This document shows, piece after piece, positions 2,463 through 28,037 of a stretch of DNA of 32,000 nt. The position numbers were made by a program, and so were the translations under genes. This DNA is from Moraxella nasicaprae (GTDB taxonomy: Bacteria; Pseudomonadota; Gammaproteobacteria; Pseudomonadales; Moraxellaceae), in contig NZ_CP089977.1 in NCBI RefSeq assembly GCF_025643275.1, positions 1,020,001 to 1,052,000 of the forward strand, given 5' to 3'. Positions within the stretch are counted from its first letter, which is position 1, and each line of letters begins with the position of its first letter. Below the pieces are notes generated by a model. It did not search any database. It had not been told where the DNA came from and was given only the letters and a program-made list of their open reading frames with translations.

Positions 2463-3182
2463 ATGCGTATTTTATGCCATTTATCGGATTATGATGCCCA
2501 ATTTGATGCATTGCCACCAGATTGGCAGGTGGTTTTTTTGCCCAGCCATCACCTTGATGATACCAATCTACTAGATGTCATCATGTGTCACCTTGCCCAA
2601 GACAGCACCATCGTCGCTGTCATGTTGCCAGCTGCTTGTGCCGTCATGCAACATCTTGATGCACTCAAATCGCACGCCATCATCTTGGTGCATGACGATG
2701 AATCTTTGGCAATGAAAGCATGGGAGCTTGGTGTGGACGACTATCTTGTCACGCCCATCACCACAGAAAAATTAGCCAATAGCTTAGCCAAAATCAGTCA
2801 GCCCACGCTGGCAACCTTAGCTTGGCACACCCAAAATCAGCCAACCAACCATCTCATCACCAACAACAAACACGGCACAAAACTCATTGATGTATCAAAC
2901 ATTTATTACATCATCGCTGATCACAAATACCTGACGGTTCATCATACCCAAGGCACGACACTGTTTGGTGGCACACTCAAATCGTTGGCTGATACCTACC
3001 CAACCTTATTACGCATTCATCGAAATACCCTCATTAATCCTGCTTATCTGCACGCCATTGACCAGCATTTGGGGCAAGTGATGGCGGTTGTGGCAGATGA
3101 TGCTCGCAAATTTTATCAACCCTTGCCAATTTCGAGGCGAGCCTTGCCAAGCGTTCGCAAATGGCTACGCAAGGCGTTTTGA
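2463..3182 (+). CDS. LytTR-family (AlgR-like) DNA-binding regulator with a degenerate receiver domain.
   Basis: The C-terminus has a LytTR-type segment: IDVSNIYYIIADHKYLTVHHTQGTTLFGGTLKSLADTYPTLLRIHRNTLINPAYL. The position between argH and hemCD matches the algR position in Pseudomonas and Acinetobacter. The N-terminal half lacks the canonical receiver residues (see findings). Confidence 0.8.
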   Translation: MRILCHLSDYDAQFDALPPDWQVVFLPSHHLDDTNLLDVIMCHLAQDSTIVAVMLPAACAVMQHLDALKSHAIILVHDDESLAMKAWELGVDDYLVTPITTEKLANSLAKISQPTLATLAWHTQNQPTNHLITNNKHGTKLIDVSNIYYIIADHKYLTVHHTQGTTLFGGTLKSLADTYPTLLRIHRNTLINPAYLHAIDQHLGQVMAVVADDARKFYQPLPISRRALPSVRKWLRKAF

Positions 3183-3247
3183 TTGGCTATTTTGTCAAGA
3201 AAGTTTTATAATGATGATGATTGATAGACCAAAAAATAGGAAATCTT

Positions 3248-4192
3248 ATGACCACGCCCAAGACATTAACCATCGCCACTCGTCAGTCTCCGCTGGCTCT
3301 GTGGCAAGCCAATTTTGTCAAAGATGAACTGCAAAAATTATACCCACAGATGGACATTCGCCTGTTGGAGTTGGTGACCAAAGGCGACAAAATCCTAGAC
3401 ACCCCTCTTGCCAAAATTGGCGGAAAAGGCTTATTTGTCAAAGAGTTAGAAACCGCCCTTTTAACAGGACAGGCAGACATTGCGGTGCATTCCTTAAAAG
3501 ATGTGCCAATGGTTTTGCCAGAGGGTCTCACCATTGGGGCATATCTTGACCGTCATAGCCCTTTTGATGCTTTTGTCAGTAACGATTTTGAGAGTTTAGA
3601 TGAATTGCCACAAGGGGCAAGAGTTGGCACTTCAAGCCTACGCCGTGAATGTCAGCTTAGAGCCTACCGCCCAGATTTGACCATCATCAGCTTGCGTGGT
3701 AATGTTGGCACTCGCCTATCCAAGCTTGATAATGGCGACTATGATGCCATTATCCTTGCCCAAAGTGGCTTGGAGCGATTGGGGCTACACGAACGCATTC
3801 GCCACAGCCTACCTGCTGATATTTGCCTGCCTGCGGTCGGTCAAGGAACGCTTGCCATCGAATGCCGAGACGATGAGATTAAAGCACTCATCAAACCTTT
3901 AAATCATGACACTTCCGCCCTAAAAGCCATCTGTGAACGGGCGATGAATCATGCCTTAGAGGGTGGCTGTCAGGTGCCGATTGCTGGATTTGCTACTTTG
4001 GTGGATAATCTTTTACACTTGGAGGGGCGAGTGGGTACGCCTGATGGCAACACCCTCCTAAAAGTGGTCAAACAAATAAGCATCACAGACAACGCCCATC
4101 ATGATGCCATCGAACTGGGTCAACAAGTCGCCACAGAACTCTTGGCACAAGGGGCGGACAAGATTTTGGCGACTGTTTATGCCAATGCCTAA
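3248..4192 (+). CDS. hemC: Porphobilinogen deaminase (hydroxymethylbilane synthase).
   Basis: [19 protein letters not shown] matches the HemC N-terminus. ATG at 3248 is preceded by AGGAAA. The track start at 3221 is a TTG and is unlikely to be used. Confidence 0.95.
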
Positions 4193-14109: not shown

Positions 14110-14246
14110 TCTCTTTACCTATTTTTTAATTTTTTCATATTATAGCAGATTTTTAGACACGCCTTATTGACAAAGTATTCATCTATCAAACCAAAATAGT
14201 ATAAATAAAACAACTTTTCTAATAATAGTGTATCGCTTGACAATCC

Positions 14247-14256
14247 AAAAAAAAAA
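14247..14256. repeat. A10 homopolymer in the divergent promoter region, inside a candidate promoter spacer.
   Basis: Counted directly (14247..14256). It lies between TTGACA (14237..14242) and GATAAT (14258..14263). Confidence 0.9.
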
Positions 14257-14301
14257 CGATAATAAATTTTTATGTTCTTTGTGTTTATCAAGGAATTTAT
14301 C

Positions 14302-14652
14302 ATGAAAAAGCTACTGGCAATTCTAGCATTTACCCTACCCATGACTGTTTTAGCAAATGGCAATCTGCCTTTTGTGGGCAAGAAGCAGTTTTGGAGCTAC
14401 TGCATCAGCGGTATGGGCTACACTCATTATCTGGAAATCAAAAAGAATGGCAATGCCAAAATCTATACGGTCAGCAATAAAACAAACAGAGTGGGAATGG
14501 TCGAATATCAAGGCAAGTATCGCACAGTGATGGAAGATTCAGAAGGTCGGTATTTTAAAGTGTTAAATCGCCGACAAATTGCCCTAACTGACAGTCAAGG
14601 TAATATTGACTATGATTCTTGCGGCGAAGAGGCTGTGATGAGATTACAATAA
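14302..14652 (+). CDS. Hypothetical small secreted protein.
   Basis: ATG 14302 is preceded by AAGGA. The signal peptide is MKKLLAILAFTLPMTVLANG. The mature part is about 96 aa with two Cys residues. I recognise no family. Confidence 0.55.
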   Translation: MKKLLAILAFTLPMTVLANGNLPFVGKKQFWSYCISGMGYTHYLEIKKNGNAKIYTVSNKTNRVGMVEYQGKYRTVMEDSEGRYFKVLNRRQIALTDSQGNIDYDSCGEEAVMRLQ

Positions 14653-16660: not shown

Positions 16661-16683
16661 AAAAGACTTTGTAAGATTTTGAA

Positions 16684-16786
16684 AACTTGATTTCCTACGG
16701 CGGTACGAACCGCATCAGGTTCAACGGATTGCCAATGGCTCTCAGCGGTTTTTATTTGCACAGCAAAAACCGCACTCCGTCAAGTT
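16684..16786 (-). ncRNA. TPP (THI-box) riboswitch aptamer.
   Basis: The minus strand reads AACTTGA CGGAGTGCGG...CCGCTGAGAGCC...GAACCTGATGCGG...CCGCCGTAGGAAA TCAAGTT. The P1 stem is AACTTGA/TCAAGTT. The conserved CUGAGA, ACCUGAU and CGUAGGAA elements are all present. A TACAAT -10 lies just upstream (16798..16793). Confidence 0.9.
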
Positions 16787-16951
16787 GTGTTTATTGTAGC
16801 ACAATTTTTAGGCAAATTAGACATTTAGCCAGATTGGTATTTTTAATCAAAAGACCACTTTTATTCAAGATAAAATAATTAAAAAACCCACCAATACATG
16901 TTATGATGGCAATTCTATGAATGTTTTTTCGTGTAATGTTGGAGGTGGGAT

Positions 16952-18202: not shown

Positions 18203-18208
18203 TTGGTT

Positions 18209-20026
18209 ATGTTAAAATTTTTGTTATCAAGTTGTTTGTTGTTTGCCAATATTGCCTTTGCCAATTCGGTATTTTTTGAAATATTTGATAAAAAAGACGA
18301 CCAAGAAGTTGTTGGCATCATTACCGCTAATGGCAAAACCATTATTCCCACAAAATATCAGCACATTATCCAAAATAATGATGATATTGATGGCAATAAG
18401 GATAGAAAATGGGTTGGTATTTATGAAAATGACAACAAAGAATATACCGACTACTACACATTAGATGGTCAATTTTTAAAATCACAAGCAAGCACTATAC
18501 CTTATTCAGAATATGAATTACCCAATTTAATGCTTGATTATCCCGATATTAATGATAAGGAAAAGCTTGCAAAAGTTAATTCTGAAATAGAACAAAAAAT
18601 CAATCAATTAAGTGAAGAAGATAGAGAGTACAGTTATAAAACAAATGTTATTATCAATAGTTATTTGTCTTTAATCAATCGCAAAACTGGCAAACAAACA
18701 CCTTTAACCGATAAAAAGATTGCCAAGCTGTCTCGTTTTCAAAATGTTGGCGAGCGAGAGCTTGGGGTTATTGGTGCAAGGGACGAAAATGGCAAATGGG
18801 GCTTTATTGATGATGATGCCAATTGGGTTATTCCACCCCAGTTTAATGATTTGAATGATGACCATCGCTCTTTTGCAAAACCCTTACCCAATCATATTTT
18901 ATCCATTTATCAATTTTATAAAAAAATTGATGATAATTATGAAAGGTGTTGGAGTTTTGTTTTTAAAGATGGTAGTACAGCAGGGGAATTTGATTTTTTT
19001 AAAGGTTTTGAAAAGCACTCAAAATATGGCAACATTGGCTTTGCCGAGCCGTGTGGTGCTTACTTGTCAGACCATAATGGCATTATTAACGATAAAGGCG
19101 AATGGCTAATTACACCACAAAAAGGTAGGCAGTTACTCTCACTTCCTGATGAACAAGATTTTGTCGCCATTCAGAATGTTGCCATTGATGAACAATACAA
19201 TGATAAGCATATAGACAAAATTGGTTTTATGGATATGTCGGAAAGTATCAAAATTCCCGTTAAATTTTACTTTCCCAATTCTCGTGAGATGAATTTTGAT
19301 AGCAATAATGCACAAGTGGCATTTACTAATGAGTTAATGGCGGTTAGTGAAGAGAAAAACAGCCCTTATTATGGCTTTATTGACCGCACAGGTGATTGGG
19401 TCATTGAGCCAAACCTAATTACCAATAATTCTAATAGTTACAATTTTGATAATCACGGGTTTTCTTATACTTTTTTGCCCAATAACGAACACCAAGCCAA
19501 AGAATATGAAATTGCCAAATCACAATTTGGCTTATCCGATTTTTTATTTCCCAATAGCCTTTCTGGTAGGCGAGTGATTGATAAAACAGGCAAAGAATTA
19601 TTTAAGGATTTGGCTGGCGATTTTTATAATTTTAATGATAAAGGTTATGCGGTTTTTATCAGTCATAAAAATAAAAATTTGCAAGGCGTTGTTGATAAAA
19701 ATGGGCATTTTGTCATACCGCCCCAATATGATAATTTGGATTTAGCCGACAATGTTATCATTGCCACCTTAGAAAAATCCAATAAAGAAGAAATAAAACA
19801 CATGGGCTTATTGGATTATCAGGGCAATGTTATTTTGCCTTTTGAATATCAAACCATTACCGATTATACTTTTATGCTTGATGATAATGCCGTTTTTGTT
19901 GTGCGACATCATAATGGTAAATATGGTATATTAGATAAATTTGGTAATTGGCTATTGCCTTTACAAGACAAAAATTTAAGAATTTTTGATGAAGGCATTT
20001 GGTTTAAAACCATTGGATTTAATTAA
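18209..20026 (+). CDS. Secreted WG-repeat (KWG / WG_beta_rep-like) protein.
   Basis: Signal peptide MLKFLLSSCLLFANIAFA. There are at least 8 degenerate repeats, for example GKWGFIDDDANWVIPPQFNDL, YYGFIDRTGDWVIEPNL, LQGVVDKNGHFVIPPQYDNL and GKYGILDKFGNWLLPLQ. The gene is strongly AT-rich. ATG 18209 lies 6 nt after the dadA stop. Confidence 0.8.
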   Translation: MLKFLLSSCLLFANIAFANSVFFEIFDKKDDQEVVGIITANGKTIIPTKYQHIIQNNDDIDGNKDRKWVGIYENDNKEYTDYYTLDGQFLKSQASTIPYSEYELPNLMLDYPDINDKEKLAKVNSEIEQKINQLSEEDREYSYKTNVIINSYLSLINRKTGKQTPLTDKKIAKLSRFQNVGERELGVIGARDENGKWGFIDDDANWVIPPQFNDLNDDHRSFAKPLPNHILSIYQFYKKIDDNYERCWSFVFKDGSTAGEFDFFKGFEKHSKYGNIGFAEPCGAYLSDHNGIINDKGEWLITPQKGRQLLSLPDEQDFVAIQNVAIDEQYNDKHIDKIGFMDMSESIKIPVKFYFPNSREMNFDSNNAQVAFTNELMAVSEEKNSPYYGFIDRTGDWVIEPNLITNNSNSYNFDNHGFSYTFLPNNEHQAKEYEIAKSQFGLSDFLFPNSLSGRRVIDKTGKELFKDLAGDFYNFNDKGYAVFISHKNKNLQGVVDKNGHFVIPPQYDNLDLADNVIIATLEKSNKEEIKHMGLLDYQGNVILPFEYQTITDYTFMLDDNAVFVVRHHNGKYGILDKFGNWLLPLQDKNLRIFDEGIWFKTIGFN

Positions 20027-25207: not shown

Positions 25208-26770
25208 TTACTCCCACTCAATCGTCGCTGGCGGTTTGCTACTTACATCATACACCACACGAGAAACATCGGTGATTTCATTCATAATACGGGTTGAGAT
25301 TTTATCTACCAAGTCATATGGCAAATGAGCAAAACGAGCGGTCATAAAGTCCACCGTTTCAACGGCACGCAATGCAATCACCCACGCATAACGGCGACCG
25401 TCGCCAACCACACCCACTGATTTGACAGGTTGGAATACGGCAAAGGCTTGGGCGGTTTTATCATACCAACCAGACGCACGAAGCTCCTGCATAAAAATAT
25501 CGTCCGCCACACGCAAAATGTCGGCATATTCTTTTTTGACTTCGCCCAAAATGCGTACGCCCAAGCCCGGCCCTGGGAACGGATGACGATAAATCATATG
25601 GTACGGAATGCCAAGAGCCACGCCAAGTTTACGCACTTCGTCTTTAAATAAATCACGCAAAGGCTCAACCAATTCAAAGGCTAAATCGTCAGGCAAACCG
25701 CCAACATTGTGGTGTGATTTAATCACGTGGGCTTTGCCCTGTTTGGATTTGGCGGACTCAATGACATCAGGGTAAATCGTGCCTTGTGCCAAAAACTTGA
25801 TACCGTCTAGTTTTCTGGCTTCTTCGCTAAATACTTCAATAAATTCTCGTCCGATGATTTTACGCTTAGCCTCTGGGTCGGTTACGCCTGCAAGGGCGGT
25901 CAAAAAGCGATTTTCGGCATCGGCACGAATCACCCGAATGCCCATATTCTCGGCAAACATTTGCATTACTTGGTCGCCTTCGTTGAGACGCAGCAAACCA
26001 TTGTCCACAAAGACGCAGGTCAATTTATCGCCAATCGCACGGTGCAACAACGCTGCTACCACTGATGAATCCACACCGCCTGATAAGCCAAGTAAGACTT
26101 CGCTGTTGCCAATTTGTTCTTGGAGTTGTTTGATACGAAGTTCAATGATATTCTCACTATTCCACAGACTGCCACAACCACAAATGCTATGGACAAAGTT
26201 TGAAATCAAGGTTTCGCCTTTATCGGTATGGGTTACTTCTGGGTGAAATTGCACCCCATAAAAATGACGGCTTTCATCAGAGGCAGACGCATACGGACAG
26301 CTAGGCGTACTAGAAGTAACACTAAATCCGTCCGCCAATTTGGTCACTTTGTCGCCGTGACTCATCCACACTTGTGATTGGTTGTGTTCGTCCGCCATAT
26401 TGGCAAGCAGTTTGTCAGCTTGGGAGATGTCAATTTTGGCATAGCCAAATTCTTTGACATCGCCTGCTTCCACCACGCCACCCAGCTGGGCGGTCATCGC
26501 CTGAAAGCCGTAGCAAATGCCAAGCAAAGGCACGCCAAGCTCAAACACGGCTTGTGGGATTTTGGGGCTATTGTCAGCGTACACGCTCTCAGGCCCGCCT
26601 GATAGGATAATGCCTTTTGGGGCGAATGCACGGATTTCGTCATCGCTTGCGTCATAGGCGTACATTTCAGAATAAACGCCTGCTTCTCGCACACGGCGGG
26701 CGATGAGCTGGCTATATTGTGAGCCAAAATCTAGGATTAAAATGCGGTCGGTGGTGATGTTTTGGGTCAT
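25208..26770 (-). CDS. guaA: GMP synthase (glutamine-hydrolysing).
   Basis: 520 aa. The GATase block is [20 protein letters not shown]...GICYGFQ. The ATP-PPase P-loop is [10 protein letters not shown]. The C-terminus is PPATIEWE. Confidence 0.97.
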
Positions 26771-26895
26771 TTAAGCGGTCCTTTGGTGTGTAAAACGATA
26801 GAGATATTTTGGGATATTTTAGCATTTTTTTGGTTGTTTAGCGAACAATAAATGGTGTAATATGTACGCTTAAACTTCATTTTTAAGGACGCAAC

Positions 26896-27929
26896 ATGAC
26901 CACCCCCCCCCAAATCTTTTTTCATTCGCCACTAGTGAGCTAAGTCAAGATGCATTTTTTGCATGGCTACTCAGTTTTGCTGATAAAAAATACCAAAACG
27001 ACTTTAAAGATTTGCACGACCTCGCCCAAGATTTGGTTTACACCATGATTCACATTACTGCTGTTGGGTTTGAACTTTACAACATTAACAAAGTTGAGGT
27101 TGTGCGTCAATATCACAATATTGACATTATGGTTATCATCAATGACGGATTTAGAATTCTGATAGAAAGCAAAACGAATAGCAAACAGCACAACGACCAA
27201 CTCGCTCGCTACTACAAATTTGCCAAACAGCAGCAAGACTGGAGTGGATTTTGCTTAGTCTATCTAAAAACTGGCAATGAATCACAGTATCATCTTGACA
27301 AGAACTGGGAGAATTTAAAAAAAATATCTCCCTTTGGTTACGCATCCATATCAAGAGAAATGCTTTTAAATAGGTTTAATAGGTACAAACATATTAAAAA
27401 TGACATTTTCCAAGCCTATTTTGAACACTTACAAGCCATACAAAATAGATCAGATGCTTATCTTACCCTTCCAATTAAAGACTGGGATCATTATTGTTGG
27501 CAAGGGTTCTTTATGCTGCTTGAAACAAGCCATGCCAATCCTATTTGGTGGGATTATGTTGATAATAAAAATGGTGGTTTTTGGGCGATTGATTGGCGTG
27601 AATCACAGTGGCAAGGGCATAAAATTGTCATGGCTTTTCATCAAACTCGCTTAGTGTTTGGCATTTTCGTTGATGATGAAAATATTCGCTCTCAAAAACG
27701 CAATGAATTTAGCGATTATTTATTATCCAAAGCCGATGCATTTTCAGAAAAGCACTATGTTTCACTTCACATTTCTCGCCCTACCAAATTTGGTAAGGGT
27801 AGATTTATGAAAGTTGCCGAGGTTGAGCAGCAATATTGGCTGGGTGGTGATAATCAAATATTTGACTGGCAAGATTTCTCACTAAATCTAAGATTTTATG
27901 AAATATTTTTCCTTTCTTTAAAAGACTGA
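26896..27929 (+). CDS. PD-(D/E)xK nuclease-superfamily protein (PDDEXK_4-like). As sequenced, the reading frame is broken by a C9 tract just after the start codon.
   Basis: AAGGA (26885..26889) plus ATG 26896 open a frame that stops at 26941..26943. The long frame is open from 26874 to 27929 but has no ATG, GTG or TTG before TTG 27012. One extra C joins them into 344 aa: MTTPPPNLFSFATSELSQDAFFAWLLSFADKKY...NIDIMVIINDGFRILIESKTNSKQHNDQLARYYKF. This contains a D...ExK nuclease core. Confidence 0.7.
26903..26911 (+). repeat. C9 homopolymer at codons 3-6 of the PD-(D/E)xK gene.
   Basis: Counted directly: a at 26902, c at 26903..26911, a at 26912. Confidence 0.97.
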
Positions 27930-28001
27930 TAAAATAAATCAGTACAAATCAACATACCAATCGAACCACATTTTAACGCATAGGCTCGGTTGGTGCAAAA
28001 T

Positions 28002-28032
28002 AAAAAGCAGACCTAAAAGCCTGCTTTTTTAT
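28002..28032. terminator. Bidirectional hairpin terminator between the PD-(D/E)xK gene and gyrB.
   Basis: AAAAAGCAG-ACCTAAAAGC-CTGCTTTTTT. Confidence 0.6.
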
Positions 28033-28037
28033 TTATT

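Follow-up and report, generated by a model that had tools for sequence, protein, structure and literature searches.

Phase-variable restriction and nuclease genes are already a known kind. Homopolymer-switched restriction-modification genes are described in Helicobacter pylori, Campylobacter jejuni (cj0031) and Neisseria gonorrhoeae (PMC3936762, PMC8713573, bioRxiv 10.64898/2026.01.10.698759). Within the genus Moraxella, there is a precedent in the poly-G tract of the 5' open reading frame (ORF) of Moraxella catarrhalis mid/hag (PMC7302503). In Neisseria, single genes are carried between housekeeping genes as minimal mobile elements (PMC3082526), and drg is a stand-alone, low-G+C endonuclease gene at the leuS/dam locus (PMC4269198). 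The PDDEXK_4 nuclease family (Pfam PF14281) is listed with the function 'Unknown' (PMC3424549), and no other mention of PF14281 turned up in a literature search. Here, a gene of this family is described from Moraxella nasicaprae. It lies between guaA and gyrB in a 32,000-nucleotide stretch of contig NZ_CP089977.1 (positions 1,020,001 to 1,052,000), referred to as the window, and a run of nine C separates its start codon from the frame of its body. A sequence-only reading of the window had proposed that this gene is a horizontally acquired, phase-variable nuclease.

Reading frames and the C9 tract

The gene is compared with three other copies from a small Moraxella clade: L001 (a Logan contig), L004 (the Moraxella metagenome-assembled genome (MAG) GCA_030525825.1) and L002/L003 (two sequencing runs with the same allele). 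The features at the start of the gene are as follows.

26885-26889, + strand: ribosome-binding site AAGGA, 6 nt ahead of the ATG, conserved in L001, L002 and L004
26896-26943, + strand: start codon and dead-end frame MTTPPQIFFHSPLVS, 15 codons, ending at TAA 26941-26943 (from the sequence)
26903-26911, + strand: C9 homopolymer, the sole lesion; C10 or C7 links the ATG to the body frame (from the sequence)
26904-27929, + strand: body frame PPPNLFSF...SLKD, ending at TGA 27927-27929 and free of internal stops and frameshifts (from the sequence)

The start codon (ATG 26896-26898) is followed by ACC, A and the nine C, and its frame closes after 15 codons. The neighbouring frame stays open over 26874-27929, with TTG 27012 as its earliest ATG, GTG or TTG. 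The sequence-only reading had given the same ribosome-binding site, start, tract and frames, and all are verified. It had also proposed that C10 or C7 would fuse the ATG to the body. This holds, as one added C (C10) gives a product of 344 amino acids (aa) and the loss of two (C7) gives one of 343 aa.

All homologs begin 2-4 residues ahead of a near-invariant Pro-Asn, which is invariant in a 13-sequence alignment. The linker between the Met and the Pro-Asn varies among relatives (MTTPN, MTNAPN, MTTSSPN, MNTPN and others). Because every homolog begins just before this block, ATG 26896 is the true start. TTG 27012 was rejected as the real start, as it would delete the near-invariant N-terminal block, or helix, and part of the active site. 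With C10, the start region would read ACC ACC CCC CCC CCA AAT, which is collinear with ACC ACC TCT TCT CCC AAT in the intact 344-aa ortholog (P0001, encoded by L001). Because of this collinearity, C10 is the predicted natural ON state.

The features of phase-variable loci that are found here are a repeat tract in the 5' part of the ORF and a change of length that toggles an otherwise intact frame. The C9 allele would be OFF, with ribosomes beginning at ATG 26896 and halting after 15 codons on a tract that is one base short. The tract sits in a short, length-tolerant linker between the Met and the near-invariant Pro-Asn. Slipped-strand mispairing (+1 C or -2 C) would then yield a 344- or 343-aa protein with the active site E15, D77, E91-x-K93 and Q102...Y106. 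Since nine C/G in a row are enough for frequent slippage, the locus would be expected to be phase-variable de facto, with a minority of ON cells. The chance that C9 is a genuine OFF allele that slippage can reverse is judged to be about even, and ON/OFF switching driven by slippage is plausible.

No part of the cassette changes faster than the tract region, which reads C9, C6, GCCCCC (C5) and TCTTCTCCC in the four alleles. At 26905-26910, the window has CCC CCC and L001 has TCT TCT (~128-133), which makes four C/T differences in six bases. Elsewhere the window and L001 alleles differ at 13% of sites, and the homopolymer was built or broken in one lineage.

The encoded protein

The product consists of two domains.

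26913-27341, + strand: predicted PD-(D/E)xK nuclease domain (Pfam PDDEXK_4, residues 7-149), from the Pfam profile
27462-27926, + strand: C-terminal, Trp-rich alpha/beta domain (residues ~190-344), from the AlphaFold2 (AF2) model

The resemblance to PF14281 that the sequence-only reading had noted is upheld by a profile search. The repaired protein scores 42.3 bits (cut-off 22.3; E=1e-10), with residues 7-149 aligned to positions 2-153 of the 183 in the profile, and nearly all of the homologs found carry PF14281. The motifs noted earlier (NIDIMVII, ILIESK and QLARYY) are present in the body. In alignments of 13 and 97 sequences, E15, Q18, D19, D77, E91, K93 and Q102 are invariant and the N-terminal block PNLFxFAxxELSQDAFFxWL is almost so. 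At Y106, conservation is complete among the 13 sequences and at least 90% among the 97. The window ORF has all eight residues (E15 at 26937, D77 at 27123, E91 at 27165, K93 at 27171, Q102 at 27198 and Y106 at 27210). By profile and alignment, the gene is a predicted PDDEXK_4 member with an intact catalytic motif.

The AF2 model was built from the body-frame translation exactly as sequenced. It is confident, with a predicted local distance difference test score (pLDDT) of 92.3 and a predicted template modelling score (pTM) of 0.88. The best Foldseek matches among structures of the Protein Data Bank (PDB) are almost all PD-(D/E)xK nucleases with weak scores (best E 4e-3, probability 0.96), and they include MspJI, VC1899, Nt.BspD6I, EcoO109I, NucS/EndoMS, SfsA, Card1 and BamHI. 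A search of the sequences of solved structures with a family profile returns VC1899 only (E=0.8).

The C-terminal half is rich in conserved Trp and Gly and folds confidently alone (pLDDT 95.5). This domain has no match among PDB structures (best E 0.55). Among 1.84 billion representative proteins, it is found only at ~180-330 of proteins of ~330-345 aa, and shorter matches look like fragments. So far, the C-terminal domain thus appears always to be fused to a PDDEXK_4 nuclease domain.

The protein has no match in NCBIfam or PHROGs, and no homolog is present in 50,697 phage genomes. A plasmid search returns four distant megaplasmid matches only. A subgroup of homologs of ~460 aa (P0022, P0038, P0048 and others) combines PF14281 with PF20140, a Pfam domain of unknown role. 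Two homologs in the ~460-aa length range are from the Bacillota Cytobacillus and Ornithinibacillus.

The cassette and its exchange between species

The gene and its signals occupy the space between two housekeeping genes.

26762-28032, 1271 bp: accessory cassette (promoter, gene and terminator), the whole guaA-gyrB intergenic space (BLAST and alignment)
25208-26770, - strand: guaA (GMP synthase), conserved left flank, divergent from the cassette gene; exact match to UXZ05771.1
28038-30479, - strand: gyrB, conserved right flank, convergent with the cassette gene; exact match to UXZ05772.1
26834-26863, + strand: putative promoter, TTGTTT (26834-26839), 18-nt spacer, TAATAT (26858-26863), read by eye
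27998-28034, no strand assigned: hairpin between an A-run and a T-run, resembling a bidirectional terminator and shared with gyrB (RNAfold)

The nuclease-like gene is the single ORF of the 1.27-kb cassette. Its G+C content is 36.5%, against 48.2% for guaA, 45.8% for gyrB and 43.6% for the window; the spot counts of the sequence-only reading (15/60 for the gene and 39/60 for guaA) are exact. The putative promoter is conserved in L001 and L004. The hairpin, with A- and T-runs on either side, agrees with the earlier proposal of a bidirectional terminator shared with gyrB. Its RNAfold free energy is -9.3 kcal/mol on the + strand and -14.6 kcal/mol on the - strand, and a terminator scanner missed it. 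A terminator-like hairpin is kept in L001 and L004, and the relatives that lack the cassette have a different one.

Five close relatives (L086, L090, L091, L092 and L093) have gyrB, 90 bp and guaA, with no cassette. Their GyrB is identical or at least 90% identical to that of the window. The cassette is present at the same site (guaA-cassette-gyrB) in the MAG L004, and L001 carries it with gyrB downstream. The copy in L002/L003 is more distant (72% amino-acid identity); it adjoins guaA, and on its downstream side a PfkB kinase gene takes the place of gyrB.

Between the window and L004, sliding identity is 94-98% in the cassette, 71-92% in guaA and 69-87% in gyrB. Within the gene, the two copies are 96.5% identical, with a synonymous divergence (dS) of 0.17. 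Identity falls right at the cassette edges and not within the flanks. Because cassette identity is far above flank identity, a recent move of the cassette between the two species is strongly indicated by the alignment. The same discordance rules out a long-resident, vertically inherited gene for this pair. Together with the five empty sites, it bears out the earlier claim of a horizontally acquired, stand-alone gene.

The cassette contains no integrase and no transposase; no junction duplication is visible by eye, and no formal repeat search was made. By its content and setting, the gene is best described as an accessory, stand-alone cassette of the 'minimal mobile element' type. It may have been transferred by recombination through its flanks.

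Selection and inactivation in the Moraxella clade

By the Nei-Gojobori method, the ratio of nonsynonymous to synonymous divergence (dN/dS) is 0.052 between the window and L004, 0.133 between the window and L001, and ~0.10 to L002. These ratios indicate purifying selection over nearly the whole history of the gene, and they are indirect evidence that the ON allele works and is kept by selection.

The differences between the window and L004 were polarised with L001 as the outgroup. The window lineage has accumulated 10 synonymous nucleotide changes and 2 amino-acid changes since it parted from L004, and no extra lesion. The L004 lineage has 14 synonymous nucleotide changes and 5 amino-acid changes.

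Only one of the four copies in the clade is intact (L001, 344 aa). In L004, the lesions are Q45*, an A5-to-A4 frameshift and an out-of-frame tract (ATGA-C6-AAT). In L002/L003, the start is in frame (MTNAPN, C5), and the gene is interrupted by W24* (TGG-to-TGA; L002 ~650-770). Among 74 species-representative loci of the wider family, a truncated copy is found only in the Moraxella MAG. The gene thus appears to have been inactivated three times, independently and recently, within this small clade. Three inactivations despite long-term purifying selection are the pattern expected of a beneficial but costly gene.

A switch or another explanation

Several observations weigh against a switch at C9. 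The L004 lesions and the W24* codon of L002/L003 are beyond repair by slippage. A comparable tract is found in none of the 74 species-representative homologs. Neither tract-length variants nor an ON form of the window allele are present in the protein collection or in two metagenome scans. The 344-, 343-, 305- and 294-aa products have no exact copy in a collection of 15 billion proteins. A strict consensus promoter scan did not pick up TTGTTT/TAATAT, so that the promoter is inferred only. The tract is the sole C/G run of at least 7 in the window; one run of nine is observed against 0.11 expected, and at least one occurs in 10 of 100 shuffles. The mere occurrence of a C9 in the window is thus unremarkable, and what counts is its place in codons 3-6 as the sole lesion of an otherwise intact 1-kb ORF. 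Of the two metagenome scans, a protein-seeded one of metagenome contigs found no copy of the window allele, and one with an 18-nt DNA pattern over the ribosome-binding site and start gave 34 matches, all unrelated chance ones. Since loss is evidently favoured or tolerated among the relatives, the tract may be just the easiest breaking point of a gene that is being lost.

This last view leads to plain decay, in which C10-to-C9 is the first and most probable loss-of-function mutation, there is no meaningful ON subpopulation and further lesions will follow. Such decay would fit the state of the clade, where three of the four copies are inactivated, two of them irreversibly (L004 and L002/L003), where five relatives lost or never had the cassette, and to which inactivation is specific among the 74 species representatives. 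It would also fit the GenBank record, which has no protein between guaA and gyrB. The window copy itself argues the other way. Because it has no second lesion, and 10 synonymous changes against 2 amino-acid changes, any inactivation must be very recent. Its single lesion is also placed where the gene most readily reverts, and C9 will still yield C10 revertants. The sequence-only reading had held that a decaying pseudogene would show the same tract in all relatives together with additional disabling mutations. This is nearly, but not identically, what is found: multiple lesions or relaxed selection are absent from the window copy, present in L004 and, through the nonsense codon, present in L002/L003. 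Likewise, the comparison of the guaA-gyrB interval that the same reading had suggested reveals both presence and absence of the gene and differing tract lengths (C9, C6, C5 and interrupted), but the other non-intact copies are irreversibly broken. Plain decay is considered somewhat unlikely for the window copy. A sequencing or assembly error, in which an under-called homopolymer hides a true C10 and an ordinary, intact 344-aa ORF, is slightly less probable still. The record is one complete contig of 2,106,666 bp, which usually means long reads, for which a G/C run of 9-10 nt is a classic error context. The run is the only one of its kind in the window, so accuracy at that length has no local check, and C10 exactly restores collinearity with the intact ortholog. 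Against this, the remaining genes of the 32 kb are all intact, and three genes (an ABC-transporter gene, recF and the cassette gene itself) contain 8-nt homopolymers that are in frame. In addition, L004, a MAG that was assembled independently and, from its SPAdes-style contig name, apparently from short reads, also has its tract (C6) out of frame at this site, which argues that natural frameshifts do occur there.

Recoding would make C9 a working allele. A -1 ribosomal slip on C CCC CCC (26904-26910), or slippage of RNA polymerase, would give MTTPPPN... and a constitutive, low-level expression. The product of a -1 shift while CCC CCC is decoded is identical to that of the C10 allele, and transcriptional slippage is known to occur at homopolymer runs of at least 9, documented mostly for A/T runs. 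C-runs, however, slip poorly compared with A/U runs, no stimulatory RNA structure lies downstream (z = -0.63) and the arrangement is not conserved, as no shift is needed in L001 and L002 and one in the opposite direction would be needed in L004. This explanation is very improbable. The favoured reading of the tract remains a slippage-reversible OFF allele.

Possible function and defence context

From its domains, its neighbours in other taxa, its patchy distribution and exchange, its absence from phages and its repeated inactivation, the product is most likely a DNA-targeting nuclease of the defence or restriction type that is costly to express, in which the C-terminal domain would sense or bind the target. 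A costly nuclease of this kind would explain the patchy distribution, the cross-species exchange and the repeated inactivation in a clade that lacks the WYL repressor adjoining the gene in other taxa. The defence reading of the cassette gene is rated as an evenly balanced prospect.

In PADLOC, six models of PDC-S26 match the protein (best E=1.5e-13, residues 13-141 against positions 41-170). These matches span residues ~13-149 against ~41-178 of models of 389-415 aa, and the C-terminal half is unmatched. Because the match covers the nuclease domain only, membership in PDC-S26 is not established. PDC-S26 is itself an untested candidate that is scarcely mentioned in the literature. Both points count against the defence reading.

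By raw count, WYL/WCX regulators make up 12 of the 131 immediate-neighbour ORFs and occur in at least five lineages. In Psychrobacter with a related MAG (8 loci), Polynucleobacter and Ursidibacter, the regulator directly precedes the PDDEXK_4 gene in the same direction, as one also does in Rodentibacter. In Capnocytophaga and Vibrio, a WYL regulator is immediately downstream. In eight loci labelled Psychrobacter or Oleiphilus (L063, L065, L071, L073, L075, L078, L079 and L081), a WYL-type regulator of 372 aa is immediately upstream and co-directional. The coordinates are ~2812-3930 in most of these loci, and the PDDEXK_4 homolog starts with MTTPN. In these eight loci, WYL and PDDEXK_4 look like a conserved two-gene module.

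In the Pasteurellaceae Rodentibacter (L088 8996-13982) and Ursidibacter (L129 6924-11945), the homolog is part of a conserved, co-directional block made up of WYL, PDDEXK_4, an AAA ATPase (691 aa) and SIR2. The Rodentibacter island adds an adenosine deaminase, a second SIR2 and a leucine-rich repeat (LRR) protein, and the Ursidibacter island adds GmrSD. From its gene order, this block may be a multi-gene defence system rather than a set of adjacent singletons. Type I/II methyltransferases, IetA, PDC-S30 and PDC-S48 account for a few further neighbours. In Moraxella (the window, M. lacunata and Moraxella sp. ZJ142), the gene is alone among housekeeping genes, and neither the window nor three other Moraxella place it in a defence island or beside a defence regulator.

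A broader proposal is that PDDEXK_4 is a widespread and costly anti-phage or anti-foreign-DNA nuclease that is usually held by WYL, and that the bare cassette in a naturally transformable Moraxella clade is controlled by the poly-C switch instead. This proposal is doubtful. If true, the gene would be the first PDDEXK_4 member that is phase-variable through a simple sequence repeat (SSR), and phase variation would replace the transcriptional repression of a toxic defence gene.

Other features of the window

Beyond gyrB, the window continues with recF, an exact match to UXZ05773.1 of Moraxella nasicaprae. The accessions UXZ05771.1-UXZ05773.1, from the record of strain ZY201224, are numbered consecutively, which leaves no annotated protein for the guaA-gyrB interval in that public record. 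Therefore, the cassette gene is either annotated as a pseudogene or unannotated. In L004, L090 and L093, dnaN and dnaA lie beyond recF. Because these related loci share the order dnaA-dnaN-recF-gyrB, the cassette site presumably lies no more than a few kb from oriC, the replication origin.

An A10 run (14247-14256) is present inside a promoter-like element (TTGACA-15 nt-GATAAT, 14238-14263). Just downstream is an ORF of 126 aa (14272-14652) whose N-terminus resembles a signal peptide and which has no match in Pfam. L004 lacks this ORF, and its thiC lies next to the ABC-transporter gene. The A10 element may be a second SSR-controlled locus, in which tract length would alter the promoter spacing.

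An AT-rich (~34% G+C) ORF of 607 aa with WG-beta repeats (PF14903) is found at 18203-20026, between DAO oxidoreductase and L-PSP genes. Because L093 has only a 71-aa ORF at this position, the WG-beta-repeat ORF appears to be another accessory insertion. A thiamine pyrophosphate (TPP) riboswitch lies upstream of thiC (16674-16789, - strand; RF00059, 68.3 bits) and is the sole Rfam match in the window. The first 1000 nucleotides (1-1000) are AT-rich (34.6% G+C) and contain an ORF of 145 aa (502-939, - strand) with PT repeats (PF04886).

Significance and comparison with known systems

If switching is true, a single strain would provide a natural ON/OFF pair for PF14281, a widespread and uncharacterised family with a function listed as 'unknown' since 2012. 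The pair would give a handle on the phenotype of the family, whether phage resistance, a transformation barrier or toxicity, and homopolymer phase variation would be extended to a veterinary Moraxella species. Should the tract turn out to reflect a sequencing error or plain decay, there would be nothing unusual in the finding. Regardless of switching, the locus is a clean case of a cassette that is exchanged between species and has no mobility genes.

The cassette resembles the Neisseria minimal mobile elements and drg, which are also whole-gene, low-G+C cassettes between housekeeping genes, without mobility genes. The Neisseria elements are present, absent or alternative by strain and are thought to move by transformation and homologous recombination. 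For the Moraxella cassette, recombination through the flanks is inferred, and identity drops sharply at its edges. drg differs in that it encodes a characterised, GmeATC-specific enzyme and is not reported to be switched by frameshift; the genus and the flanking genes also differ.

The protein resembles the MspJI type (Type IV, modification-dependent) in that a PD-(D/E)xK domain and a second domain are combined in a single polypeptide without a methyltransferase. MspJI (4f0p) is the best structural match, with a Foldseek probability of 0.96, but this match is weak (E=4e-3, template modelling (TM) score 0.24) and there is no sequence similarity. The domain order is reversed, as the nuclease domain is N-terminal in the Moraxella protein. 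With PDC-S26 and the WYL-regulated (BrxR/CapW-like) defence genes, the gene shares a nuclease-domain match and, in other taxa, the WYL neighbours. The window cassette differs in having no WYL gene, and its likeness to PDC-S26 is at the domain level only.

In the homopolymer-switched genes of H. pylori, C. jejuni and N. gonorrhoeae, the frame of a nuclease or defence-type gene is likewise set by the length of a G/C (or A/T) tract within the ORF. Those genes are ON or OFF by genome and are often exchanged horizontally. The Moraxella nasicaprae locus differs in that it has no methyltransferase partner and belongs to the uncharacterised PDDEXK_4 family, and switching here is predicted. The SSR loci of M. 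catarrhalis are mostly adhesins and methyltransferases with demonstrated tract variation, whereas the locus in the window would encode a cytoplasmic, nuclease-like protein under a predicted switch. Shared with M. catarrhalis mid/hag are the genus, a mucosal niche (the human respiratory tract and the goat nose) and a G/C tract near the 5' end of the ORF.

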